From contig CAVTTN010000002.1 of assembly GCA_963737655.1 (NCBI GenBank), forward strand, positions 4,864,001-4,928,000: DNA of 64,000 nt. Direction: 5' to 3'. The stretch comes from an uncultured Planctomycetota bacterium. GTDB taxonomy: Bacteria > Planctomycetota > Planctomycetia > Isosphaerales > Isosphaeraceae. A program made the position numbers and the translations under genes. This document shows, one piece after another, positions 19,111 through 60,339 of this stretch. Every line of letters begins with the position of its first letter. Within the stretch, counting starts at the first letter, position 1. The notes beneath the pieces are model-generated. The model saw nothing but the letters and a program-made list of their open reading frames with translations, did no database searches and was not told the DNA's origin.

Positions 19111-20499
19111 ATGAATCCGTCCCGATCCCTCGCCGCCCTGGCCGTGGCCTGCGGGCTGGCCTCTCCGTCGGTCGCCTCGGCCGAGGGCACCCTGCTCGCG
19201 CCGCTCTCGAATGAGGACGCCTGGAAGGCGCTCCCCCCGGCGGAGGCCGGCGCCGGCCTCCCTTTGCCGTCCTGGGCCCGGATGCTCGCCCGGTCCCTGC
19301 CCCGGACCACGGCGGCCCTGCTCCAACTGGACCTGGCGCAGCGATCGAAGAACCCGCTCGACCCGAAGCTCCGCGCGGCGATGCGCCACGTCGCCGCCCG
19401 CGCCAACGGCTCCTCCTATGGCGAGGCCTGCGCCGAGGCCGACGCCCGCCGCGCCGGCCTCGCGGCTTCGGCGATCGCGGCCCTCGCCCGGGGCGACCTC
19501 TCGGGCTTCTCGGCCGAGGACCGGGCCGCCCTGGAGTTCGCCCGCAAGATGACCGTCGAGTCGTCGAAGGTCACCGACGCCGAGTTCGCGGCCCTGGTCC
19601 GGGGGTTCGGCGAGAAGAAGGCCGCCGCGATGGTCTTGACGATGGCCTACGCGAACTTCCAGGACCGCCTCCTGATCGTCCTGGGCGCCCCCGTCGAGGA
19701 GGGCGGGCCGCCGCCCCCGGTCGAGGTGGCATTCCGGCCCGAGGTGCTCGCGTCGCGGAAGGCGCCCGCCTCCCCGCCGACGATCTCCGACCTGCCCCGG
19801 CCCTCGGGCAAGGACGTCGTCGAGGACGACGACGGCTGGGAGGCCGTCTCCTACGCCCGGCTCCAGGAGAAGCTGGAGGAGCAGAGGAGCAAGCCGACCC
19901 GGCTCCGCGTCCCCGCGATCGACGAGGTCAAGTCCGGCCTGCCCCCGGGCGCCTCGATGCAGGGCGAGCGGGTCGTCTGGAGCCTCGTCGCCTTCGGCTA
20001 TTGCCCGGAGCTGGCCGTCCCGTGGGAGGCCGTGATGTGGATCAACGGCGAGGAGAACGGCCGGCGATTCGACCGCGCGTTCGGCCTCGGCCTGTTCTGG
20101 ATCGTCACCCGGACGATCGACTGCCCGTACTGCATGGGGCACGTCGAGATGAACTGGGAGGTCATCGGCATGAAGCCCGAGCAGATCGCCGAGAGGAGCC
20201 GGGCCCTGGCCGGCAAGGATTGGTCGAGCTTCCCGCCGGAGGAGCAGAGGGCGTTCGCCCTGGCCCGCAAGCTCACGGCGACCCCGGCGAAGGTCACCCG
20301 CGACGAGATCGACGGCGCGATCAAGGACTTCGGCCGCGACCCGGCGGTCAGCCTCCTGACCTACGTCTGCCGGTGCAACTACATGGTGCGCGTCTCCAAC
20401 GGCTTCCAGCTCTCGCTGGAGCGGGACAACGTCTTCTTCGACTACTACAAGGTGAAGCCGCCGACTCCGGCCGGGCCGGGCGGCGAATCGCGGCGATGA
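19111..20499 (+). CDS. Exported AhpD / carboxymuconolactone-decarboxylase-like protein (two lobes; CxxC = CPYC)
   Basis: Signal peptide; [47 protein letters not shown]. Confidence 0.8.
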
Positions 20500-20567: not shown

Positions 20568-21785
20568 ATGAAGGCGTTCTCGCGACGACTGGGCTGGGCG
20601 ATCGCGCTGGCGGCGCTCTCGGGGGCGGCGCCGGCCTTCGCCGGCGAAGGACCGACCGCGGACTCGCTCTCCGTGGGCACGGCCAGGGCGCTCGACGCCC
20701 TCTGGCCCGGCCACCCCGAGGCGATCGACATGCTGGCCGACATCCTCATCAAGGGCGAGGAGATGGGGGGGGCCGACGGCTGGTTCCGCAAGGCCCCCTC
20801 GCGGACCCGATTCGACTGGGGCGCGACCCGCGCGGCGCTGGATCGGGACGGCGACGGCTCGGTCACCCGGGCCGAGTTCGGGGGCCCCGACGCCGACTTC
20901 GCCCGGCTCGACCGCGACCGGGACGGCCGGCTCTCGGCGGCCGACTTCGACTTCTCGGCGCGCCCCTCCGGGCCGCCGGCCGGCTCGATCCTCCTGGTCC
21001 GGGCCGACCGCGACGGCGACGGCCGTCTGACCCGCGACGAGCTCGACCGGTTCTTCCGGGACAACGACCGCGAGGGCCTGGGCTTCCTCTCGCTGGCCGA
21101 CCTCCAGGAGGCCCTCTCGACCGCCCCGGGGCCGGGCGCCTCCTCGTCGATCCCGACGCGGTCGGTCCTGCTCAAGAGCTTCTTCCGGGGCGAGCTCGGC
21201 GCCTGGCCGCCCGGCCCCCCGCTGGACGCCCCGGCCCCCGACTTCACCCTCAAGGCGGCCGAGGGGGGCGAGGCCGTCTCGCTGTCGAAGCTCGTGGGCC
21301 CGAAGCCGATCGTCCTGGTCTTCGGCAACTTCACGTGCGGGCCGTTCCGGGGGCAGGCCGGCAACCTCCAGAAGCTCCACGCCCGCTACAAGGACCGGGC
21401 GGAGTTCCTGATGGTCTACGTCCGCGAGCCCCACCCCACCGACGGCTGGAGGATGGAGAATAACGACCGCGTGGGGGTGGCGGTCCGCCAGCCCCGCGAC
21501 GCGTCCGAGCGGCTCGAGGTCGCCCGGTCGTGCGGCCGGACCCTCAAGCTCGGCTTCCCGATGCTCGTGGACACGATGGACGACGCGGTCAACAATGCCT
21601 ACAGCGGCATCCCCAGCCGGCTCTACCTGATCGACCGGGGCGGCAAGATCGCCTTCAAAAATGGCCGGGGGCCGTTCGGATTCCGGCTCGCCGAGCTGGA
21701 GCAATCGCTCCTGCTGCTCCTCCGCCAGGAGGCGACCGCCGCCGGACCTCCGGCCGACGGCGATCGACCGCCCGGCGGGCGATGA
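20568..21785 (+). CDS. Exported EF-hand + iodothyronine-deiodinase-like thioredoxin-fold protein
   Basis: Signal peptide; [83 protein letters not shown]. Confidence 0.85.
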
Positions 21786-21836: not shown

Positions 21837-24378
21837 ATGATGCATCCCCGATGGTCCCTCGCCGGCCTCCGCCTCGGGCTCGCCCTCCTGCTGGTCGCGC
21901 CCTGGACCTGGGCCGGGCCAGGATCTGAGGACCTCGCCGATCCGGAAGGCCGAGACGCCCGCCCAGGCGGCCCGCAGGGCGCTGGACGAGTCCTGGCCCG
22001 ACCACCCCGAATGGCTCGACCAGTACACCGACATCCTCAACGACGCCGGCAGCGGCCCCAACGACGGCTGGTTCCGCCGGGCCCGGTCGCAGACCCGGTT
22101 CGGCTGGGGCGCCGTCGCCGGCCGGCTCGACGGCGACCACGATGGCGCGATCTCCCGCAAGGAATTCCCGGGCACCGACCGCGACTTCGCCCGGCTCGAT
22201 CGCGACCGCGACGGGGCCTTGACCCGCGCCGACTTCGACTTCCCGGCCAACAGCGCCCTGAACGCATCGCCGGGGTCGCTCCTGATGTACGTCCTGGACG
22301 ACGACGGCAACGGCAAGGTCACCCGCGAGGAGATGGAGGCGTTCTTCAAGAAGGCCGACGGCGGCGACCTCGGCTTCCTCTCGCTGAACGACCTCCAGGA
22401 GAACTTCACCACCCGCCCGAAGACATCGGGCCTGCCCGACCCGGGCCCCCCGTCGAAGGAGACCCTCATCCGGGGGCTGTTCCGCCGGGAGATCGGCTCC
22501 CTCGAACCCGGCCCGTCGCTCGACCAGAAGGCGCCGGACTTCACCCTCAAGACCGTCGACGGCAAGGGGGAAATCACCCTGTCGAAGCTGGTGGGGCCGA
22601 AGCCGGTGGTCCTGGTCTTCGGCAACTTCACGTGCGGGCCGTTCCGCAGCCAGGCCGGGAACGTGGAGAAGCTCTACCAGCTCTACAAGGACCGGGCGGA
22701 GTTCGTGATGGTCTACGTCCGCGAGGCCCACCCCACCGACGGCTGGAGGATGGACAGCAACGACGCGGTGGGGATCACCACCGCCCAGCCGAGGACGTAC
22801 GAGGAGCGGGTGGCGCTGGCCCGGACCTGCGGCAAGAGGCTCTCGCTCGGGTTCCCGATGCTCGTCGATGGGATCGACGACCCGGTGGGCAACGCCTACA
22901 GCGGGATGCCCAGCCGGCTCTACCTGATCGACCGCGACGGCAAGGTGGCCTACAAGAGCGGCCGGGGCCCCTACGGCTTCCTGCCGGCCGAGCTGGAGCA
23001 TTCGCTGGCCCTCCTGCTCCAGCCGTCGGCCGAGCCCTCGGGCCATGCCGAGGCTCCCGGGCCGACCCCCCCCGTCCAGCTCGCCCGTCCGGTCGAAGGG
23101 CCCGGCCCGGTGAAGCTCCTGAGCAGCGAGGAGGCCTGGAGGCGCCTGCCCCGGGTCGTCGAGGGCGGCCATCCTCCGCTGCCCAACTGGGCCCGGGCCA
23201 CGGCCCACGCCCTGCCCCAGACCACCGCGGCGATGCTGGAGCTGGACCGGCTCCATCGGACCGAGAGCCCGCTCGGCCCGGCCCTCCGCGGCAAGATGCG
23301 CTGGGTCGCGGCCGACACCAACCGCTGCGCCTACGGCCGGGCCACGGCCGAGGCCGACCTCCTCCGCGCCGGGATCGACCGGGCCGAGATCGACGCCCTG
23401 AAGGCGGGCCCCCGGCTCTGGCCGGAGGCCGAGCGAACGGCCCTGGAGTTCGCCTCGAGGATGAGCCGCGACGCCTCCGAGGTCACCGATGGCCAGGTCG
23501 CCGCCCTGATCCGCGCCCACGGCGAGGAGAAGGTCGTGGCGATGGTCCTCCTCCTGGCCGCCGCCAACTTCCAGGACCGCCTGGTCATGGGCCTGGGGAC
23601 CCCTCTGGAAACGGACGGGCCGATGGCGCCGGTCGCGGTCCGATTCGCCAAGGACGGCCCCCCGCCGCTCGTCCCGAACCGAGGCAAGCCCGAAGACTGG
23701 CGGGGCCCGCCCGTCCCCGACCGCGTGGACGATCCCGAATGGGCCGTCCTGGACTTCGACGACCTCCGCAAGGGCCTGGACTCGCAGAAGAACAACGCCG
23801 GGCGGATCCGCGTGCCCTCGCCCGAGGAGGCCGTCGCCCACCTCCCGGCCGACTATCCGAAGCCGAAGTCGCCGATCCGGATCAAGTGGAGCCTGGTCGT
23901 CTTCGGCTACCAGCCGAGGCTGGCGGCGGCGTGGTCGTCCGTCATGAGGGCCTTCGACTCCGATGCCCACCTCGACGACGTCTTCGGCGAGAGCCTCTTC
24001 TGGGTCGTCACGAAGTCCATCCACTGCTTCTACTGAATGGGCCACTCCGAGATGGTGCTCGCGGTCGCGGGCCTGGACGCGGAAGCCCTGGACAAACGGA
24101 CCCGGACCCTCGCCTCGGGCGACTGGTCCACCCTGCCGCCTCGCGATCGCGCCGCCTTCTTCTTCGCGAAGACGCTGGCGCAGGCGCCCTGGGAGATCCG
24201 CGACGCCGATCGGCAACTCCTGATCGAACACTTCGGCCCGGAGAGGGCCGTCGACGTGATCTGGCAGTCGAGCTGGTGCAACTACATGACCCGGGTCGCC
24301 GACGCGTTCCAGCTCCCCCTGGAGCGAGAGAACGTGTTCGCCCCCCCACCGGCGCCCAACCCAGGGGCCAAGCCCTGA
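21837..24378 (+). CDS. Exported EF-hand + deiodinase-like + AhpD-like fusion, probable selenoprotein (Sec at TGA 24034-24036; frameshift near 21910)
   Basis: Signal peptide from 21837; homology to both upstream genes; in-frame TGA aligns to the second Cys of the paralog CxxC and homology continues in frame to 24378. Confidence 0.75.
24054..24074 (+). promoter_or_regulatory. Candidate bacterial SECIS hairpin
   Basis: GG-[bulged T]-GCTCGC-loop GGTC-GCGGGC-CT; the loop starts 27 nt after the TGA. Confidence 0.6.
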
Positions 24379-29410: not shown

Positions 29411-30124
29411 TGTTTTCTGATTTGAGAATCCGTTCGGTTTTGACCCGCAACGATCGACTTATAAGAGACTTGTGTCGATCGAATTTTTGAGCTTCACCGC
29501 CGACTTTTGCCGGAAATGGTGGATCGCTCGGGGGTGCGCGTGAGGGGTCGTTCGGAAGGGGCGGTGGGCGTGGTGGCGGGATTGGGTGATCGGGGGTGGG
29601 GGCGGCCCTCGATGATGGGATCACGGGGGCGGCGGCGTTGGGGCTCGGGTCCGATTTGCGAGGGGGAGGGTGGCCGTGATCGATGGGGATGGATCGGGTC
29701 GGGATGTCGGCTCGGGGGCCGGGGCGACATCCTCTTGGGGCCGGGCCAGTCCCGGAACCATTCGCGATATTTTATAATCTCGATGTGATTCGGGCCATTC
29801 GGATCAAGGACGTCGAGAGAGAACTTTTCCATGATTGCTTGAAGGATCTCACGACCTTCGACTTATTTGGCCCGGATTGCCGGATTGCCGCGGTCTTCCG
29901 AAATCGTCCCTTTCTTGTGAGGCGTGAGGGTCCTGGCTTTCCCAAGGCGAGCCGCGGGCGTCCTTTGCGACGATTTCTCGATCCGGGAGGGGTCTCGGGG
30001 TCCGTCTGGTGTTGGCAGTGGCTGGACGGCGACGGTCCGATCGGTTGGAATGAGGCCGCGATCGACCCGGGTTCGTGGCGAACGAGCGGGGCGGGGTCTT
30101 GCCGATCCGCCGGGAGAGGGTGAC

Positions 30125-31821
30125 GTGGCCTCCGAGAACCTTCCCGCCCTCTTCCGGGCGACCTGCGATCGCCTCGGCCCTCGGGCGGCGGTTCGGTTCC
30201 GGCGCGATGGCCTGTATCGTGACCTTTCCTGGGACGATTACCGCCGACGGGTGGATGAGGCGGCGGCGGGCCTGGTGGCCCTGGGGGTGAAGCCCGGGGA
30301 TCGGGTGGCGATCCTTTCGGAGAACCGGGTCGAGTGGCTGGAGGCCGATCTGGCGGTGCTCTCGGCCGGGGCGGTGGGCGTCCCCTTGCATGCCCCGCTG
30401 TCCGCCGGGCAGGTCGCCTATCAGGTGGCCCATAGCGGGGCCGTCGGGGCGATCGTGAGCGGGCCGGGTCAGGCGGCGAAGGTCCTGGAGGCGAGGGATC
30501 AGGCCCCGGAGCTCCGCTGGATCGTCGCGTTCGACGCGATCGGGGCGGGCGATCCGGGGATTCGCGCCCTTTCGTGGCTCGGATTGGGCGGCGAAGGCCG
30601 GCGGGCGGGGCCGGCGGCGAGGTTGGACGTGGATCGGAGGATCTCGGCGCTCTCTCGCGGCGACCTGGCCTCGATCCTCTATACGAGCGGCACCACCGGC
30701 CCTCCCAAGGGCGTGATGCTGTCTCATGGGAACTTCCTCTCGAACGCCGAGACCACGGCGGTCATCTCCGGGTCGGTGCCGACCGACGTGGTGTTGAGCT
30801 GGCTGCCCTATAGCCATGTTTATGCCCGCACGTGCGACCTCTACGTGTTCCTGGTGGATGGTGCCACGCTGGCCCTGGCCGAGTCGGTCGATGCCCTGAT
30901 GGTCCATCTGGCCGAGGTCCAGCCGTCGTGCATGTCGTCGGTGCCGAGGTTCTATGAGAAGGTCTGGGGCAACCTCCAGGGGGTCCCCGAGGCGGCCCGG
31001 CCGAGGGCGCTTTGGGGGATTTTCGGGCCGAATGTCCGCCATTTCTCCTCGGGGGCGCCCCGTTGCCGAGGCCGGTGGCCGAGGGGTTCCACGCCTGCGG
31101 GATGACCTTGATGGAAGGCTACGGGATGACCGAGTCGTCGCCCGTGATCAGCTTCAACACGCCGGGGGCCGTGAAGGTGGGCTCGGTCGGCCGGCCGATC
31201 CCGGGCGTGGAGGTCCGGATCGCCGAGGATGGCGAGATCCTCACCCGGGGGCCTCACGTGATGATGGGTTACTGGCGAGATCCCGACGCCACGGCGAGGA
31301 CGATCGTCGACGGCTGGCTGCACACCGGGGACGTGGGCCATCTGGATCCCGACGGCTACCTGTTCATCACCGATCGCAAGAAGGACATCCTCATCACCTC
31401 GGGCGGCAAGAACGTCGCCCCGAGCGAGCTGGAACGGCTGATCGTGGCCGATCCGACGTTCGATCAGGCGGTGGTCTTCGGGGACGGCCGGCCGTTCGTC
31501 GGGGCGCTGGTCGTGCCGACGGCCGAGGCGATGGAGGCCGAAGCGGCCCGCCTCGGCGCCCCCCTCGATCGTGACGGCGAATTCCTCGCCCCGGGGCCGA
31601 TCGTCGATGCCTTCTTCGCCCGGGTCTCGACGGCGATGCAGGCCGTGAGCGGGCCGGAGCGGGTGAAGGCGATCCTCGTCCTCGGGCGGCCCCTGAGCGT
31701 CGATCGCGAGGAGGTCACGGCCACGCTCAAGGTCCGCCGGCGGCACGTCCTGGCCGAATTCGCCGACCGGATCGAGGCGCTTTACCAGAGCAAGGCCGCC
31801 TCTGCGGCCCTGGACGTCTAG
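30125..31821 (+). CDS. Long-chain fatty acid-CoA ligase (frameshift in the G run near 31052)
   Basis: YTSGTTGPPKGVMLSHGN; EGYGMTESSP; WLHTGDVG; DRKKDILITSGGKNVAP. Confidence 0.9.
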
Positions 31822-41333: not shown

Positions 41334-42644
41334 ATGCTCCCGGATCGCGACCGGCTCCGCGTGCTCCTCCTGGCCGAGGCCTGCCACCCCCGGTGGGCCA
41401 GCGTCCCGAGGATCGGATACAACCTCGCCCGGGCCCTGGCCGACCGGCCGGACCTGGAGATCACCCTGGCCACCCAGGTCCGCAACCGCGAGGCCCTGGA
41501 AGACGACCCGATCGCCGGGTCCGCCCGCCTGTTCTTCGCCGACTCCGAGCGGGTGGCCCGTCCGCTCTATCGGCTCGGCAAGCTCCTCCGAGGCGGCAGC
41601 ACCCTGGGCTGGACCACCATGACGGCCCTGGCCCTGCCCGCCTACCTCGCCTTCGAGGCCGCCGTCGTCCGCGAGTTCGACGACGACCTCCGCCGAGGCC
41701 GGTTCGACCTGGTCCATCGGATCACCCCGGTCTCGCCGACGATCGGCAGCCGCCTGCCGTCTCGCGGCGACGTCCCCACGGTCCTCGGGCCGCTCAACGG
41801 CGGCCTGGCCTGGCCCCGAGAGCATGGCCGGCTCTGGCGGCAGGAGCGCGAGTGGCTCGCCCCCCTCCGGCCGCTCCACCGCCTGCTCCCGTACCACCGC
41901 TCCGCCTACCGGAACGCCTCGGCGGTGCTCTACGGGAGCCGGTCCACCGGCCAGGAGATCCCCCCGGGACGCGGCCTCCGGCTCTACCTCCCGGAGAACG
42001 GGATCAATCCGGCCACGTTCCCGATCGAGGACGCCTGGAAGCCCCCGGAGACCGGGGCCCGGTTCCGCTTCCTGGCCGTCGGCCGGCTCGTCCCGTACAA
42101 GAGCTTCGACCTGATCCTCCGGGCGATGGCCGGGTCGGGAATCCTCAAGAATTGCGAGGTCCGGATCATCGGCGACGGCCCCGACCGGGCCTCTCTGGAG
42201 GCGCTTTCGGCCGAGTTCGGCCTGGGGGAGTGCGTCAAGTTCCTCGGCTGGGTGCCGCAGGAGGCCGTGGGGGAGGAGCTCCGCTCGGCCCAGGCGTTCG
42301 TCTTGCCCAGCCTCCGCGAGTTCGGCGGGGGGGCCGTCCTGGAGGCGATGGCCGCCGCGCTTCCGGCCATCGTCGTCGATTACGGAGGCCCCGGCGAGCT
42401 GATCGAGGGAGGCCGGGGCGTCCCCCTGCCCATGACCCGGGCCGAGGGGCTCGTCCCCCTGCTCCGAGACGCCATGGAGGGCCTCGCCACCGACCCCGCC
42501 CGATGCGCCGAGATCGGCGGCGCCGCCGCCAGGTTCGTCCGCGAGGCCCACACCTGGGACGCCAAGGCCGAGACGATCGTCGGCACCTACCGCCGGGTCC
42601 TGGGCATCCCCGAACGCTCGCCGGTCGGCGCGAGTCTTGCATGA
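41334..42644 (+). CDS. Glycosyltransferase family 4
   Basis: AVGRLVPYKS, IIGDGPDR, PSLREFGGGAVLEAMA. Confidence 0.9.
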   Translation: MLPDRDRLRVLLLAEACHPRWASVPRIGYNLARALADRPDLEITLATQVRNREALEDDPIAGSARLFFADSERVARPLYRLGKLLRGGSTLGWTTMTALALPAYLAFEAAVVREFDDDLRRGRFDLVHRITPVSPTIGSRLPSRGDVPTVLGPLNGGLAWPREHGRLWRQEREWLAPLRPLHRLLPYHRSAYRNASAVLYGSRSTGQEIPPGRGLRLYLPENGINPATFPIEDAWKPPETGARFRFLAVGRLVPYKSFDLILRAMAGSGILKNCEVRIIGDGPDRASLEALSAEFGLGECVKFLGWVPQEAVGEELRSAQAFVLPSLREFGGGAVLEAMAAALPAIVVDYGGPGELIEGGRGVPLPMTRAEGLVPLLRDAMEGLATDPARCAEIGGAAARFVREAHTWDAKAETIVGTYRRVLGIPERSPVGASLA

Positions 42645-42687
42645 GAAAGGGGCCGTCCGCCCACGACGGCCGAGAGACTCAGCGACG

Positions 42688-43317
42688 ATGGCCACCGAGA
42701 CGGCAGCCGAGGAAGTCCGCGACCTCCAGTACGCCTCCGAAGGCACCGGCCCGCTCCTCCAGCGCGACTACTGGGCCGCCTTCCGGGGCGTGGACCGGTC
42801 TCCCGAGCAGGTCATCGAGGCCGTCCGGTCCCGGTTCTGCGACTTCGCCCCGCCGGAGACGGCCGCCTTCCGCCTCTGCGGCGAGGATTGCGACGGCCCC
42901 CTGGACCTGGGCAGCGAGATGGAGATCCACATCCGCCCCCTGGCGCTCTGCCGGGTCCGCGTGGTCCACCGAGACGAGCGGAGCCTGACCCTCCGCACCC
43001 TCGCCGGCCACCCGGAGGCCGGGAGGATCACCTTCGGCTCGTATCGGGACGACGCCGGCACCCTGGCGTTTCGCATCCGCAGCCGGACTCGCCAGGCCGG
43101 CTTGCTGCACTATCTGGGGTTCCTCCTGATCGGCAAGCAGATGCAGTCGCGATGCTGGATCAAGTTCATCGGCCGGCTCGCCGAGATCCTCGGCGGGCAA
43201 GTCGAGGACACGATCCACGTCCGAACCCGGACCACCCGGGACCGACCGGCCGACTGGGGCGCCGCCGACGAACCGACCTTCCCCACGCCCGAGGTCGTCC
43301 CCGACGGCCGGTCCTGA
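42688..43317 (+). CDS. DUF1990-like protein
   Basis: TLAGHPEAGRITF motif. Confidence 0.65.
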   Translation: MATETAAEEVRDLQYASEGTGPLLQRDYWAAFRGVDRSPEQVIEAVRSRFCDFAPPETAAFRLCGEDCDGPLDLGSEMEIHIRPLALCRVRVVHRDERSLTLRTLAGHPEAGRITFGSYRDDAGTLAFRIRSRTRQAGLLHYLGFLLIGKQMQSRCWIKFIGRLAEILGGQVEDTIHVRTRTTRDRPADWGAADEPTFPTPEVVPDGRS

Positions 43318-43345
43318 GCTCCGCCACCGGAACAGGGAGGGATTC

Positions 43346-44049
43346 ATGGCCGTGTGGCGATTCGGGCGAGGCTGGACGGACGACGAGCTCAAGGCCCACC
43401 TGGCCGGGCTCGCGTCCCGGACCGTCAACTTCGACGTTCCCCCGAGCCAGATGACCCGCCAGAACGGCTGGACCATCGACGGCCGGGAGGAAGTCCCGAT
43501 CGGCACCGAGCCCCGGGCCCCCCTCTCGGTGATGGCTTCTACGCCCGGGCCAGGCAGGCGATCATCAACTACGACTTCTCCGACCCGACCATCGTCGTCG
43601 GCCACTTCGACCCGAACACCCCGTTCGTGGGGCGAGACATCTTGCTGGAAATGAAGGTGATGGGCTTCCGGTTCCTCAGCGGATGCCGGGTCCATTCCGT
43701 CAGGGAGGAGACCGACGAATCCGGGACCACCTTCGGATTCCGCTACGACACCTTGCAGGGGCACATCGAGCAAGGGTTCGAGTGGTTCCTGCTGGTCAAG
43801 GAGCACGAATCGGGGAAGATCCACTTCACCATCGAGGCCCACTGGAGGCTCGGCGACTTCCCCAACCTCTGGAGCAAGGCCGGCTTTTACGTGATGGGCG
43901 AGCACTACCGCAAGCTCTGGAGGCAACGCGCCCCGGAACGGCTCCGAAGGCTCGCCCACCAGCCCGAAGCCGCGCCGGTCGCCGAACCCGGCCAGCTCGC
44001 CCACCGGGGCGACGAGACGCCCGTCCGGACCGGGCCGCCAGGCTCGTAG
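43346..44049 (+). CDS. DUF1990-like protein (frameshift near 43512)
   Basis: FGFRYDTLQGHIEQGFEWF; the N-terminus lies in a different frame. Confidence 0.7.
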
Positions 44050-52946: not shown

Positions 52947-54679
52947 TCAGTCGGTGGACGAGGCCACCACGGAAGGAGAGGGCGAGGGGGCCGCCTCGCC
53001 GGACTGGGGCCGGAGCGCCTGCTCGACGGCTTCCATCAGGCGGTCGGCCCGGAATGGCTTGTACAGGACGGTCTGGAGCCCTTCCTGGCGGGCCTTGACG
53101 ATCGAATGGGTGGGGTCGTAGCCGAAGCCCGTCATGAGGATGATCGGCACGCCGGGCTGGACCTCTCTGAGGCGGCGGAACACCTCGTAGCCGTCCAGGT
53201 CGGGCAGGCGGATATCGACCATCACGGCCGAATAGGGCGACTGCCGGGCCAGGGCGATGGCCTCGTGGCCGTCCCGGGCCGTCTCGACCGTCGCCCCTTG
53301 CCGTCCCAGCAAGTTGTGGGCCGCCTTGCGGACCGATTCCTCGGCATCGACGACCAGGAGCCTCGCCCCGCCCAGCCGGGCCGCCGGCTTGGACCCGTCC
53401 CGCCTCGGTTCCGGGACGATCGTCGAGCCGACCTTCTGGATCAGGCTGCGGATCTCCCGGGCCCGGAACAGCAGGTGCTTCAGGCGGTTGATGACCTCGT
53501 CGTCGTGGCCGGCGTAGCGGTCCAGGACGGTCGTGGCGTCGCTGAGGATGTCGTCCAGCGGCAGCGCCAGCTCCCGGCTGATCGCCTCGACCGACGCCGA
53601 GGCGGTGCTGAGCTTCTCGGCCTGGAGCAATTCCAGCGTGTTCAGGGCCGAAGCGACGCTCCTGGCGTAGATCTCCAGGAACTGGCGGTCGCGCTCATCG
53701 AAGGCGTTGGGGCTGGCGTTCTCGACGTTCAGGGTGCCGATGACCGTCCCGTGATAGAGCAGCGGGACGGTCAGCGAGGACCTCGCCCCGGCCGCCCCTT
53801 CGAGGTAGAGCGGGTCGTTCGCCGTGTCGGGGCAGAGGTAGCTCTGGCCTGTCGCCGCCACGAACCCGGTCACGCCGTTGCCCTCCTTCCGCGAGAATAG
53901 CTCACGCTTGGCCGCCAGGGGGGTCATCCCCTCGGTCAGCAGGGGGACCAGCCGGCCGGTCGGGCGGTCCAGCAGGCGGATCTCGATGAAGTCCAGCCCG
54001 AGCAGGTCCTTCATGTGGCGGGCGATGTTGTACTTGAGCAGGTCGGTCCTCTCCTCCACGCCGAGCTCCGAGAGCTCGTCGGGGGTGAGGTCCGCGAGCT
54101 CCTCGCCGGCCTTGTGGATGGCGTTGATCTTCTGCTCTTGCTGGAACTCGGCGGTGACGTCGCGGGTCAGGGCGATCAGGTGCGAGGGCTGGCCCGAGGG
54201 GTCCAGGACCGGCGTGACCATCACCTTCAGGTAGCAATGCGCCCCGACCCGAAGCAGGGTCGAGGCCGGGCCCTTCGACGCGATGGCCGAGGTGAACGGG
54301 CAGGGATCGGGCCGAGGACTTCCGGCGAGCCCAGGGCCGAGTAGAACCGCGCCTCCGCCGAATCGAGCTTCGCATCGGTCAGCTTCTGGAACTCCGGGTT
54401 CGCCCAGAGGATCTTGAGGTCCGGGTCGAGCACCGCCACGCCGTCGGCGATCGCGTCGAGGATCTCGTCGGCCTGGATCAGCACCGACGCCCAGCGGACG
54501 GCCGAGAGCTGCGCCGAATCGACGAAGACTCCGACGAACTGCTGCTGGCGAAGCAAGACGATCGCCCGGGCGATCGACCGGGCGACGACGACGTCGAACC
54601 GGTCCGCCAGGTCGTCGCGGGCCGAGGGTCCGGGCCGGCTCTCGCGCTCAATCACGAGGAGTCGGGGCTTCTCCGCCAC
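52947..54679 (-). CDS. PAS/GAF-containing response regulator (frameshift near 54310)
   Basis: PAS-like ILDAIADGV..WANPEF; GAF GVTGFVA..VPLL..IGTLNVE; C-terminal receiver DIRLPD..MTGFG..YKPF. Confidence 0.8.
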
Positions 54680-54949
54680 GCCAGAAAGACTCCTCGGGAC
54701 GAGCCGCCCGATCGGCCGGGGCCGTCGTTTGAACGGTCGATGCATCCTATCGCGACCAAGGCCCCCGACGCAAGCGAACGGCCGAAAGCCCCAGGGCCGT
54801 TTCTCCCCCGGTGGAAGAGTCTTCCGAAGGGTTTTGTGCGGAACGGGTTCCGGCCAAACACTCTTCGAGAGGCAAACGGCCCTCGCGGAGGGCCCAGGGC
54901 CGAGCCGTTCTTCAACCCGATGCCGAGCTTGTACTCTTCCCCGATCCGG

Positions 54950-55093
54950 GGGAGGGCGCGGCAGATCCTCGAGAGCGGTTCTCGGTCGGATGGCGCCCCC
55001 GGAGGGCCGGCCTCGGCCTGCCGAGACCCGCGAAGCCGGCAGGCCGAGGGCTGCTCGACGAGACCCGTCGTGCGCAATCCGAGCGTGAACTGC
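54950..55093 (+). repeat. Degenerate copy of the ~150-bp element at about 1480-1615
   Basis: Shared CGGTTC.CGGTC.GAT.GCGCCCCCG, GGCCTGCCGAGACCCGCG..G.CGGCAGGCC, GACCC.TCGTGCGCAATCCG. Confidence 0.75.
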
Positions 55094-55323
55094 TCTAATC
55101 AGAACGACCGAACGGCCGTCCCCAAAGCTGCCGGGCCTTCGAAACTCCGCCGCGCCTTTCCGACTCGCCGGGCCATCCCATCCGACAAAAACCTCGAAAC
55201 CCAAATAAACGACCCAAACTGCCAGCATGGGTACGTCACTTGCTAGGTCCGTGCGACGCCCGAGGTTGCGACGCCTCTGTGAAAGAGGCGCCCTCCGCCC
55301 GCCTTCGGCGCCTCACCCCGGAG

Positions 55324-58280: not shown

Positions 58281-58699
58281 AATCCTCTCGCGCTTGCAAT
58301 TTTAGATTGCAAAGCCACAAACCTCGTCCTCCTCGTGAGATGCGGCGGATCGATTTTTGGCCCGATCGGCCCCGATCGCGTGCCAAGTCGCGCGCACTCC
58401 GGGCGGCCGGGAATCATCCAAGACCCCGCAAACGATCGCGTGATGATGTTAGGAATTCGCCGGCGAATAATGCGAGGGCGACGGATTGGGTGATCGTCGA
58501 TGGCCCCGGTCGCGATGATCCGAAGGGGCGTTGAGCGTGGCGGGGCCGCCGTCGAGGCGGGCCCTCGCTCGAACCCGGCCAGTTCCTCAATCCGAATCTT
58601 TTCGGAGAAGTCTCTTGATCCCCCGCGATCGGCCGATTACACTTCGGTGAATGGGGAGATTCCCCGCTTCAGACACCCTAGAGCAGTGGGGGCGGAGCC

Positions 58700-60339
58700 G
58701 TGCGCGAGTTCGACAAGCCGATCGGTCGGGCGTGGCGACGGATGCGGTTCCAGCGGTTCCTCTCGGCGCTGGTCTGGTGCCTGGGGGCGGGGCTGCTGGC
58801 GGTCGCCGGGACGATCGCCGCGGAGAAGATCACCGGGCGGGACCTCCCGGGCGCGTCCTGGATCCCGTTCGTCGTGGCCGGGAACATCGGCGCGATCGTC
58901 GCGGGGCTGATCGCCCTGTTCACCGGGCCGAGCCGGGTCGATGCGGCCGTGGCGATCGACCGCCTGTTCGGCCTGAATGATCGCCTGGCCACCACGTTGA
59001 CCCTGCCCGAGGCGCTCCGCGACACGCCGGCCGGCCGGGCCCTGATCGCCGACACGCTCCGCCACGTCGGTTCCCTGGAAATCCCCGAGAAATTCGGGCT
59101 GAAGGCGCCGCGCCTGGCGTGGATCCCGCTGCTGCCGGCCGCCCTGGCGCTGGGCCTGATGTTCATCCCCGAATGGGCGACGACCCAGGCCCGGGCCCGG
59201 AGCAAGGAAGAGGTCGCCCAGGACAAGGAGCTGGTCAAGGCCCAGTCCAAGGCCCTGAGCAAGTCCTCGGCCGAGAAGCGCAAGGAGGCCGAGAAGAAGG
59301 AATTCTCCGCCGAGACCCTCAAGGTCCTCGCCGAGATCGAGAAGGCCGCCGACAAGCTCTCCAAGAGCCCCCGGCCGAGAAGGACAAGGCGATGGTCGAG
59401 CTCAACAAGCTCACCGACAAGGCCCAGGAGCAGCGCAAGAGCCTCGGCTCCGCCGAGCAGATCGCCAAGCAGCTCCAGCAGATGAAGGAATTCGCCACCA
59501 ACGGCCCGGCCGACGAGTTCTCCAAGGACCTGGCCAAGGGGGACTTCCAGAAGGCCGCCCAGCAGGTCAAGCAGCTCGCCGAGAAGCTCCAGAATAACAA
59601 GCTCTCCGAGGCCGAGAAGAAGGAGCTCAAGCAGCAGCTCAACCAGATGAAAGAGCAGCTGAACAAGCTCGCGAACATGGACCAGAGGAAGAAGCAGCTC
59701 GAAGAGGCCCTGAGCAAGGGCGCGATCACGAAAGAGCAGTTCGACAAGCAGATGGACAAGCTCGCCCAGCAGTCCAAGGACCTCCAGAAGCTCGGCCAGA
59801 TGGCCCAGCAGATGGAGAAGGCCGCCGAGGCGATGGCCAAGGGGGACATGAAGAAGGCCGCCGAGGCGATGGGCACGACCCAGGAGCAGCTCGAGCAGAT
59901 GGCCAAGCAGATGGAAGAGCTCGAATCGATCGACCAGGCCCTCGCCGACCTCCAGGACGCCAAGAACGGCATGGCCAACGACGGGATGAACCAGCTCGGC
60001 CAGGGCCTCGACGGGATGAACCGGCTGGGCCAGGGGAACCGTCCCGGCAACGGCAACGGCCTGGGACGAGGCCGAGGCCAGGGAGACCGCCCCGAGGCCG
60101 AGGACAAGACGGCCGCCTACAACACCAAGACCAAGGCCCAGATGAACAAGGGCAAGGCGGTCATCGAGGGGCCCGCCCAGGCCGGCAAGCAGATGAAGGG
60201 CGAGACCTTCCTGATCGACCAGGCGACCATCGAGACCTCCGCCGGGGAGCAGTCCGAGGCCCTCTCGAACCAGAAAATCCCCAACTCGGTCAAGAAGCAC
60301 GTCCTCAAGTATTTTGACGAGATCCGCAAGGGGCAGTGA
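58700..60339 (+). CDS. Membrane-anchored coiled-coil protein (frameshift near 59370)
   Basis: TM segments, LNDRLATTL, long Q/K/E/M-rich heptads, C-terminal IP..VK..V.KYF. Confidence 0.75.

Follow-up and report, generated by a model that had tools for sequence, protein, structure and literature searches.

The stretch of DNA analysed here, referred to below as the window, comprises 64,000 nucleotides from the assembly of an uncultured planctomycete of the family Isosphaeraceae (G000:C2:4864001-4928000) and contains, at positions 21837-24378 of the forward strand, a gene interrupted by an in-frame TGA codon. Our results indicate that this is one gene encoding a three-module redox protein predicted to be exported, in which EF-hands, a deiodinase-like domain and a tandem of AhpD-like domains are joined and selenocysteine (Sec, U) is inserted at the UGA at 24034-24036, and that a frame break behind the signal peptide and a missing tRNA-Sec gene are likely defects of the assembly; to this reading as a whole we assign a probability of roughly 0.8. 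Judging from the comparison of sequences, the in-frame TGA almost certainly encodes Sec: the conservation of the codon, the alternation of Sec with cysteine (Cys) among relatives, a conserved hairpin downstream and the presence of most of the Sec machinery argue that the gene genuinely encodes a selenoprotein, one of an already known kind. The gene and its two paralogs in the window have the following features:

19111-20499, plus strand: paralog of the tandem AhpD-like module in the Cys form (CPYCMGH); it too begins with a signal-peptide-like sequence
20568-21785, plus strand: stand-alone paralog of the EF-hand/deiodinase-related module
21837-21920, plus strand: start codon and signal-peptide-like N-terminus MMHPRWSLAGLRLGLALLLVAPWTWA, in a frame that differs from the rest of the gene
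21916-21925, plus strand: approximate position of a 1-nt frame break, within a GGGCCGGGCC-type run at the junction of signal peptide and mature protein, placed by a switch in the frame of third-position G+C (GC3) and by the alignment of relatives
21997-23022, plus strand: deiodinase-related module with a thioredoxin/peroxiredoxin-type fold (NF038285)
22129-22335, plus strand: three EF-hand-type calcium-binding loops, DGDHDGAISRKEF, DRDRDGALTRADF and DDDGNGKVTREEM (Pfam EF-hand_7 and related models)
23113-23595, plus strand: first AhpD/CMD-like domain, with the degenerate redox motif NRCAYG, in which the first Cys is kept and the second position is Gly (weak matches to NF053654 and TIGR04029 at residues 465-560)
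23833-24330, plus strand: second, catalytic AhpD-like domain with C-F-Y-U-M-G-H (TIGR01926, residues 696-801)
24034-24036, plus strand: in-frame TGA, read as Sec, at the second position of the CxxC motif (frame translation, aligned loci)
24057-24072, plus strand: core of the selenocysteine insertion sequence (SECIS), with a 6-bp stem GCUCGC/GCGGGC and a GGUC loop (24063-24066), 26 nt past the UGA
24376-24378, plus strand: true stop codon, TGA (frame translation)

An earlier, sequence-only reading of this DNA had placed the TGA at 24034-24036 inside one frame, between ...TKSIHCFY and MGHSEM..., and the translation agrees: a single frame runs through ...VVTKSIHCFY before the codon and MGHSEMVLAV... 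after it, and ends at ...LERENVFAPPPAPNPGAKP. The codon occupies the second Cys position of a CxxC motif followed by His (HCFY-TGA-MGH vs DCPYCMGH in the paralog at 19111-20499), exactly where that reading had put it, and the similarity to the paralog that it had seen past the TGA persists as far as ...CNYMTRVADAFQLPLERENVF. With the TGA counted as U, the frame of the body of the gene comprises 821 codons.

The sequence-only reading had also proposed that relatives be surveyed for alternation of TGA with Cys codons (TGY) at this position, and its expectation was borne out. When the C-terminal 205 amino acids were searched against 101 genomes of the family, 71 of these gave a match (defined as E <= 1e-10), and the matches of at least 55% identity (the closest at 55-68%) each contained one TGA, with two exceptions. 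Thirty loci were fetched, that of the window included; the aligned codon is part of CFY-TGA-MGH in 28 of them, from 18 genera, and of CFY-TGC-MGH in the other two, which belong to the same genus (G082 and G092). A wider sample of 300 further Planctomycetota genomes (match defined as E <= 1e-25) yielded only two matches, a Cys form in G218 and a TGA form in G270; the latter genome belongs to a different family, and its copy, with 48% identity, reads CFYU as well. U aligns with the second Cys of CPYC, CFYC or CNYC in the paralog, in three Cys-form relatives (two inside the family and one outside) and in 26 database proteins.

Sec/Cys alternation tracks the Sec trait across genomes. A tRNA-Sec of 95 nt, scoring 68-77 bits, was present in all six other TGA-form genomes tested (G057, G049, G026, G040, G006 and G054), and selA in all three TGA-form genomes in which it was sought, whereas both selA and tRNA-Sec are absent from the Cys-form genomes G082 (98% complete) and G092 (74% complete). 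These two genomes provide a clean natural example of Sec-to-Cys replacement alongside loss of the Sec trait. As a separate observation, a more distant paralog with 43% identity, located at G090:C2:3803491-3804081, also carries one in-frame TGA and may represent a second branch with Sec within the tandem AhpD-like family.

Downstream of the codon, the sequence ATG-CTG/GTG-CTC-GCG-GTC-GCG-GGC is identical in 29 TGA loci, except for one first-position change in the window's own genome. RNAalifold predicts a 6-bp stem with one U-G pair and a GGUC loop (-9.54 kcal/mol), kept in all 29 TGA loci. Third-codon-position entropy is 0 at codons +6 to +12 (28 distinct sequences); elsewhere, degenerate codons with a conserved amino acid mostly have about 0.5-1.9 bits, such as Val -18, Thr -8, Leu +18 and +25, and Arg +21. 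The Cys-form loci deviate at four of the codons +7 to +12. The bacterial SECIS model, as given in the parts of a 2026 review that deal with it (PMC13188914, Fig. 2 legend), has a loop of 3-9 nt with G at its first two positions and then G or U, a stem of 4-16 bp, a distance of 16-37 nt from the UGA and a minimum free energy of at most -7.5 kcal/mol; the hairpin, with its 4-nt loop, 6 bp, distance of 26 nt and the energy given above, agrees with 4/4 of the constraints compared. A longer alternative hairpin, often preferred by the minimum free energy of single sequences, is broken in copies with other +4 codons, and the 6-bp core was preferred to it. A second copy of the 16-nt SECIS core, at G000:C2:4838049, lacks both an in-register TGA and a homologous frame, and was set aside as a chance match.

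The genes that the sequence-only reading had named as a check on Sec decoding were found in the assembly as regards selA, selB and selD, whereas selC, the gene for tRNA-Sec, was not. The selB gene (302 bits; 336 with its C-terminal piece) adjoins selA (506 bits) at C2:7428346-7431635, and selD (341 bits) has one in-frame TGA and reads ...NCAG-U-AGKL..., which is the Sec form of this gene. All three exceed the curated cut-offs and are full-length, with no stops besides the Sec codon. The selD locus lies outside the window:

G000:C2:3221372-3221679, minus strand: selD (CAG-U-AGK), with a SelW-like gene (C-A-L-U) directly upstream

Downstream of the TGA in both selD and the SelW-like gene is a hairpin whose loop includes G-U. 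TGA also serves as an ordinary stop codon in this genome, ending 2417 of the 3272 open reading frames (ORFs) whose coding signal reaches the stop (74%).

The fusion of EF-hands, deiodinase-like domain and AhpD that had been claimed for this gene is strongly supported by profile matches and by relatives in which it is intact: the genomes G006, G054 and G026 encode single-frame fusions with a signal-peptide-like start, EF-hands, a deiodinase-like domain, tandem AhpD and CFYU. The deiodinase-related module belongs to NF038285 (deiodinase_rel), with 487.1 bits vs a cut-off of 250 over profile positions 4-345 of 347; its domain matches PF00837 with 90.6 bits and, in a phmmer search against solved structures, aligns with mouse deiodinase 3 (4tr3; E = 3e-20). 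The Cys of the motif FTCGPF (22627-22644) stands at the Sec position of deiodinase 3, which is itself Cys in the crystallised mutant 4tr3; the active-site T-U of iodothyronine deiodinases is replaced here by the Cys in FTCGPF. A second Cys, in ARTCGK (22819-22836), is likewise invariant, and both are kept in 40/40 aligned homologs.

The first AhpD-like domain is modelled as all-helical, with a predicted local distance difference test score (pLDDT) above 90. The second lies below the cut-offs of the curated families: TIGR01926 scores 40.3 vs 81.8, PF02627 gives no match to the Sec protein and 18 vs 23 in the paralog, and NF041238 (AhpD_rel_CFYUT) scores 26.9 bits vs 175 over profile positions 233-338, which makes the protein a relative and not a member. 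According to phmmer, the C-terminal domain resembles the AhpD-type 'peroxidase-related' proteins 3c1l and 2pfx (E = 3e-4), with CxxC aligned on CxxC, and the C, U and H of the active-site motif are invariant in 17/17 aligned sequences. These matches and the helical model agree with an all-helical AhpD-type fold that carries CxxC(U) and then His on the active-site helix. The AlphaFold2 model of the protein (42-row alignment) has a mean pLDDT of 83.4 and a predicted template-modelling score (pTM) of 0.62, with the AhpD-like part mostly above 90. When this model was used in Foldseek, the predicted structure resembled the cores of deiodinases 2 and 3 (template-modelling score, TM, 0.72-0.75) and ResA-type thiol-disulfide oxidoreductases, and the modelled tandem AhpD part resembled human Sestrin2 (5dj4) over about 420 columns (E = 1.7e-6, TM about 0.6).

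At E <= 1e-20, a public protein collection gave 635 matches, and the best 120 of these were analysed. Ninety-four of these 120 stop exactly at ...CFY, 81 as stand-alone proteins (about 335 amino acids, aa) and 13 as fused proteins (about 715-740 aa, with the window's own 605-aa call included), and the other 26 are full-length Cys forms (CPYC in 11, CFYC in 10, CNYC in 5). None of the 120 contains U, and every Sec-form record among them is truncated, named RefSeq-type Aquisphaera and Tundrisphaera entries included. The sequence-only reading had predicted that automated pipelines would split the gene, and the 94 proteins ending at CFY accord with this. The records are named 'alkylhydroperoxidase family enzyme', 'carboxymuconolactone decarboxylase family protein' or 'hypothetical protein', and their source organisms include Aquisphaera, Tundrisphaera, Paludisphaera and metagenome-assembled genomes of Isosphaeraceae. 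For annotation, this means that an apparently large Isosphaeraceae-type subfamily, in which the Sec form is dominant, is missed by the curated selenoprotein models.

The association with the deiodinase-related module recurs as well. Proteins of the EF-hand/deiodinase-related type number 1658 at E <= 1e-30, under the NCBI name 'deiodinase family protein'. A deiodinase-related gene is fused to the AhpD-like gene, or is its neighbour on the same strand, in 16/30 loci (4 fusions, 4 loci with the gene directly upstream and 8 with it directly downstream), and was not seen in the other 14, where flanks of at most 1.5 kb were available and several were cut by contig ends. By Rosetta-stone reasoning, this recurring fusion or adjacency hints at the AhpD-like selenoprotein as the redox partner of the bacterial deiodinase-like family.

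Several observations weigh against the reading of the window's gene as a functional selenoprotein gene. In the assembly, a frameshift follows the signal peptide of the gene. Positions 21837-24378 cover 2542 nt, a length not divisible by 3, and the ATG at 21837, like MMHPRWSLAGLRLGLALLLVAPWTWA, is out of the frame of the body, so that a 1-nt break must lie at about 21916-21925, where the high third-position G+C changes frame. The body frame is that of 21916..24378, and its first ATG, GTG or TTG occurs only at 22219. N-termini homologous to the MMHPRWSLAGLRLGLALLLVAPWTWA region are present in intact fused relatives, and one of these, P0086, crosses the homologous point as ...WTPPSGAQDPKMSP... 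(containing SGAQDPKMSP). Even with the TGA read as Sec, therefore, the assembly yields no single ORF of ~845 aa. The claim of a single secreted CxxU protein of that length holds as regards the CxxU selenoprotein, for which the comparative evidence is strong, and fails on the frameshift inside the span; export of the fused protein is predicted from its N-terminal sequence.

The second point is the tRNA-Sec gene, which none of six approaches found in the assembly. ARAGORN did not find it; the best match to the Rfam model RF01852 (49.5 bits) is a tRNA-Leu(UAA); a custom structure-pattern scan gave 0 candidates; blastn-short with the tRNA-Sec of four relatives gave T-arm matches only; an nhmmer --max profile of the same four had a tRNA-Ser as its best match; and permissive scans with Rfam in the surroundings of selAB, selD and sites of possible synteny found none. 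Synteny with two genomes of the same genus revealed no orthologous tRNA-Sec site, the flanks matching paralogous genes only (68-72% identity). To these points are added the absence of covariation in the hairpin (0/6 pairs, which never vary in the 29 loci), a single-sequence stability that is unexceptional for a genome of 69% G+C (z = -0.89; 35/200 shuffles as good), a long terminal branch of the window's copy (0.62 vs a median of 0.11 in a tree of the 30 loci and the paralog), and the fact that a redox-relay function is something we infer by analogy with AhpC/AhpD. Two near-perfect AT-rich palindromes (about 190 and 108 nt), both intergenic and outside the window, were observed at C2:381368-381559 and C2:101208-101316. 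They belong to dispersed, REPIN-like families with about 40 blastn matches each and have spurious microRNA scores in Rfam; their position at two candidate tRNA-Sec sites was dismissed as coincidence.

The explanation that competes best is that the selenoprotein family is genuine but the window's copy is decaying, with a real frameshift and a lost tRNA-Sec, in which case selD and the SelW-like gene would likewise no longer be translated through their TGA codons. The frame break and the long branch would fit such decay, as would the missing tRNA-Sec, given that this tRNA is present in 8/8 relatives that have Sec-form genes or belong to the same genus. On the other hand, selA, selB and selD are full-length, and the window's copy has preserved its catalytic residues, with Cys and His among them, its TGA and its SECIS core; there is one lesion only in 2.5 kb, the remaining 2.46 kb being open, and GC3 in the body is 0.90-0.95. 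Relaxed selection, suggested by the long branch, was considered and rejected: P0013 and P0017, the fused database proteins closest to this copy, have the same unusual residues (F48, M62, L71 and G76 in the 205-residue piece), which are therefore the marker of a subclade and not a sign of decay.

The assembly itself also argues against decay, as it is rich in frame breaks and other tRNAs are missing from it. Its completeness is 87.7% by marker genes. RF00005 finds just 43 tRNAs, with a single CAT anticodon, and an initiator-type anticodon arm, sought by its generally known signature, was not found among these 43; in the whole genome, ARAGORN finds no tRNA-Lys(UUU) and no tRNA-Val(GAC). The assembly seems to be without essential tRNA genes, and the absence of tRNA-Sec from it is therefore weak evidence for absence from the organism. 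Frame breaks or candidates for them occur elsewhere in the window:

29921-31105 and 30958-31821, plus strand: AMP-binding gene (acyl-CoA ligase type) in two overlapping ORFs in different frames
42436-44049, plus strand: two or three adjacent DUF1990-type ORFs in overlapping frames
52947-55312, minus strand: PAS-GAF-response-regulator gene with an apparent frame break near 54.3 kb
58682-60339, plus strand: two overlapping same-strand ORFs whose coding signals abut near 59.37 kb, matching no Pfam family

In the first of these, Pfam AMP-binding positions 2-272 lie in 29921-31105 and positions 291-384 in 30958-31821, which places a frame break near 31.0 kb. In the regulator gene, the PAS domain stops at profile position ~37, where the coding signal ends, and the GAF and receiver domains are in another frame. 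A further frame break may be present near 59.37 kb, and the DUF1990-type ORFs reflect either a tandem duplication or a frame break near 43.5 kb. Across the genome, 220 of 4302 ORFs with a strong signal have a coding signal that begins at least 25 codons ahead of any start codon, by a heuristic that is uncalibrated. By tblastn, the gene pair is likewise split between frames in the loci L028, L037, L047, L051 and L052; frame breaks in records of the tandem AhpD-like family are thus not peculiar to the window's genome. We conclude that the frame break and the missing tRNA-Sec are probably assembly defects, and we consider real decay of the window's copy unlikely.

If the gene is read as an intact selenoprotein gene, the following mechanism can be proposed. 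SelB would decode the UGA at 24034-24036 as Sec, guided by the 6-bp GGUC-loop hairpin 26 nt downstream. By analogy with AhpC/AhpD, the selenol of the CxxU motif in the second AhpD-like domain may be the attacking nucleophile and would re-reduce an oxidised Cys, present as a sulfenate or a Cys-Cys disulfide, in the deiodinase/peroxiredoxin-like domain fused or adjacent to it, the putative oxidised partner being the thioredoxin/peroxiredoxin-type deiodinase-like domain with its two invariant Cys. Provided that the N-terminal signal works, such a relay would sit outside the cytoplasm, in the periplasm; the EF-hands suggest calcium dependence. No DsbD/CcdA-type gene was found near the fusion gene in the window, where the neighbours encode a DUF1559 prepilin-type protein, a small lipoprotein-like ORF and a DUF1574 protein. 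A complex prediction for the Cys paralog (19111-20499) with the deiodinase-like domain of 20568-21785 gave a score of 0.00, in a run in which the controls did not fold.

A different function for the same gene product would be that of an exported, calcium-binding, selenium-dependent reductive dehalogenase, in which the deiodinase fold binds a halogenated aromatic and the AhpD/Bmp8-type domain gives the selenol in cis. The idea arises because deiodinases and the debrominase Bmp8 are both thiol- or selenol-dependent reductive dehalogenases. The similarity to Bmp8, however, is no greater than that to other AhpD-like proteins, and we rate the dehalogenase as improbable. If true, it would be a bacterial two-domain counterpart of the animal deiodinases and would supply a partner for the unexplained deiodinase-like family.

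That the TGA is an ordinary stop, giving a protein of 700-odd residues ending in CFY and a second protein of 113 residues from the next ATG, is very hard to reconcile with the data. An ATG does follow the TGA immediately, and gene callers annotate the gene in this way, as the truncated database records show. However, the Met after the motif is also found in the Cys forms (CFYCMGH, CPYCMGH) and is thus a conserved residue rather than a start, and the cut would fall within the active-site helix of one AhpD-like domain; moreover, the Sec/Cys alternation follows the presence of the Sec machinery, and the freeze of synonymous sites past the TGA is limited to the TGA forms. Insertion of a residue other than Sec at the TGA (Trp or Cys through near-cognate suppression, or by a reassigned code) would keep the frame open too, but nothing specific favours it, and it is just as remote, since TGA is the main stop of this genome and also ends the fusion gene itself, the conserved hairpin fits the SECIS model, and TGC is found instead in genomes without selA and tRNA-Sec.

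The closest known systems are the AhpD-like CxxU selenoproteins. Knowledge of these proteins goes back to 2005. Excerpts of two papers (PMC2398784, PMC13188914) place them among the bacterial selenoprotein families that have been known longest. A catalogue from marine metagenomes, as far as its relevant sections go, lists AhpD-like 1 (299 sequences), AhpD-like 2 and a 'deiodinase-like' family, together with one metagenome read that carries adjacent Prx-like 1 and AhpD-like 2 selenoprotein genes (PMC2398784). The corresponding sections of the 2026 review cover NF041047, TIGR01926, PF02627, NF041238 and an arsenite-methyltransferase/AhpD fusion (PMC13188914); the string 'Planctomyc' is absent from the available text of this review, and neither a tandem-AhpD nor a deiodinase-AhpD fusion appears in the passages found. 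Sec machinery in planctomycetes, Isosphaera pallida included, has been published (PMC4807772, consulted in excerpt). In the limited literature collection searched, we found no publication describing a deiodinase-AhpD selenoprotein fusion.

As in AhpD-like 1 (COG2128/TIGR01926) and AhpD-like 2 (PF02627), to the extent that the available sections describe them, Sec here stands where CxxC has its second Cys, within an all-helical domain of the AhpD type, the SECIS is a hairpin inside the ORF and Cys homologs exist; with the 'CFYUT' family NF041238, even the local motif C-F-Y-U is identical. Unlike those families, the protein described here scores far under every curated cut-off, combines a degenerate and a catalytic domain in a tandem of about 440 aa, and has a signal-peptide-like start and an EF-hand/deiodinase-related module fused or adjacent to it. 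It also differs from them in being largely restricted to one planctomycete family, as the two matches among 300 other genomes of the phylum indicate.

In Mycobacterium tuberculosis, AhpD re-reduces the peroxiredoxin AhpC through its CxxC motif. The system described here similarly pairs an AhpD-type CxxC protein with a thioredoxin-fold, peroxiredoxin-like partner; it differs in that the partner is of the deiodinase family and EF-hands are present, the pair is predicted from its N-terminal sequences to be exported, and the nucleophile, by analogy, would be Sec. With the iodothyronine deiodinases and the bacterial 'deiodinase-like' selenoproteins (PF00837; 4tr3, 9h48) it shares the catalytic domain, with Cys at the Sec position, but here the deiodinase-like domain contains Cys and Sec sits in the AhpD-like module. 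The debrominase Bmp8 is described, in the sections consulted, as a thiol-dependent reductive dehalogenase with the AhpD/CMD fold (PMC5577590). Bmp8 (6ohi) and the catalytic AhpD-like domain have weak sequence similarity (phmmer E = 0.0014) and a redox cysteine pair in both, but Bmp8 is no closer than 3c1l and 2pfx (E = 3e-4), and there is no sign of a halogenated substrate. The modelled tandem AhpD-like part also aligns with eukaryotic Sestrin2 (5dj4), which has two AhpD-like halves. CxxU proteins of the AhpD-like kind are already known, and the new detail is the fusion or conserved adjacency with an EF-hand/deiodinase-like module.

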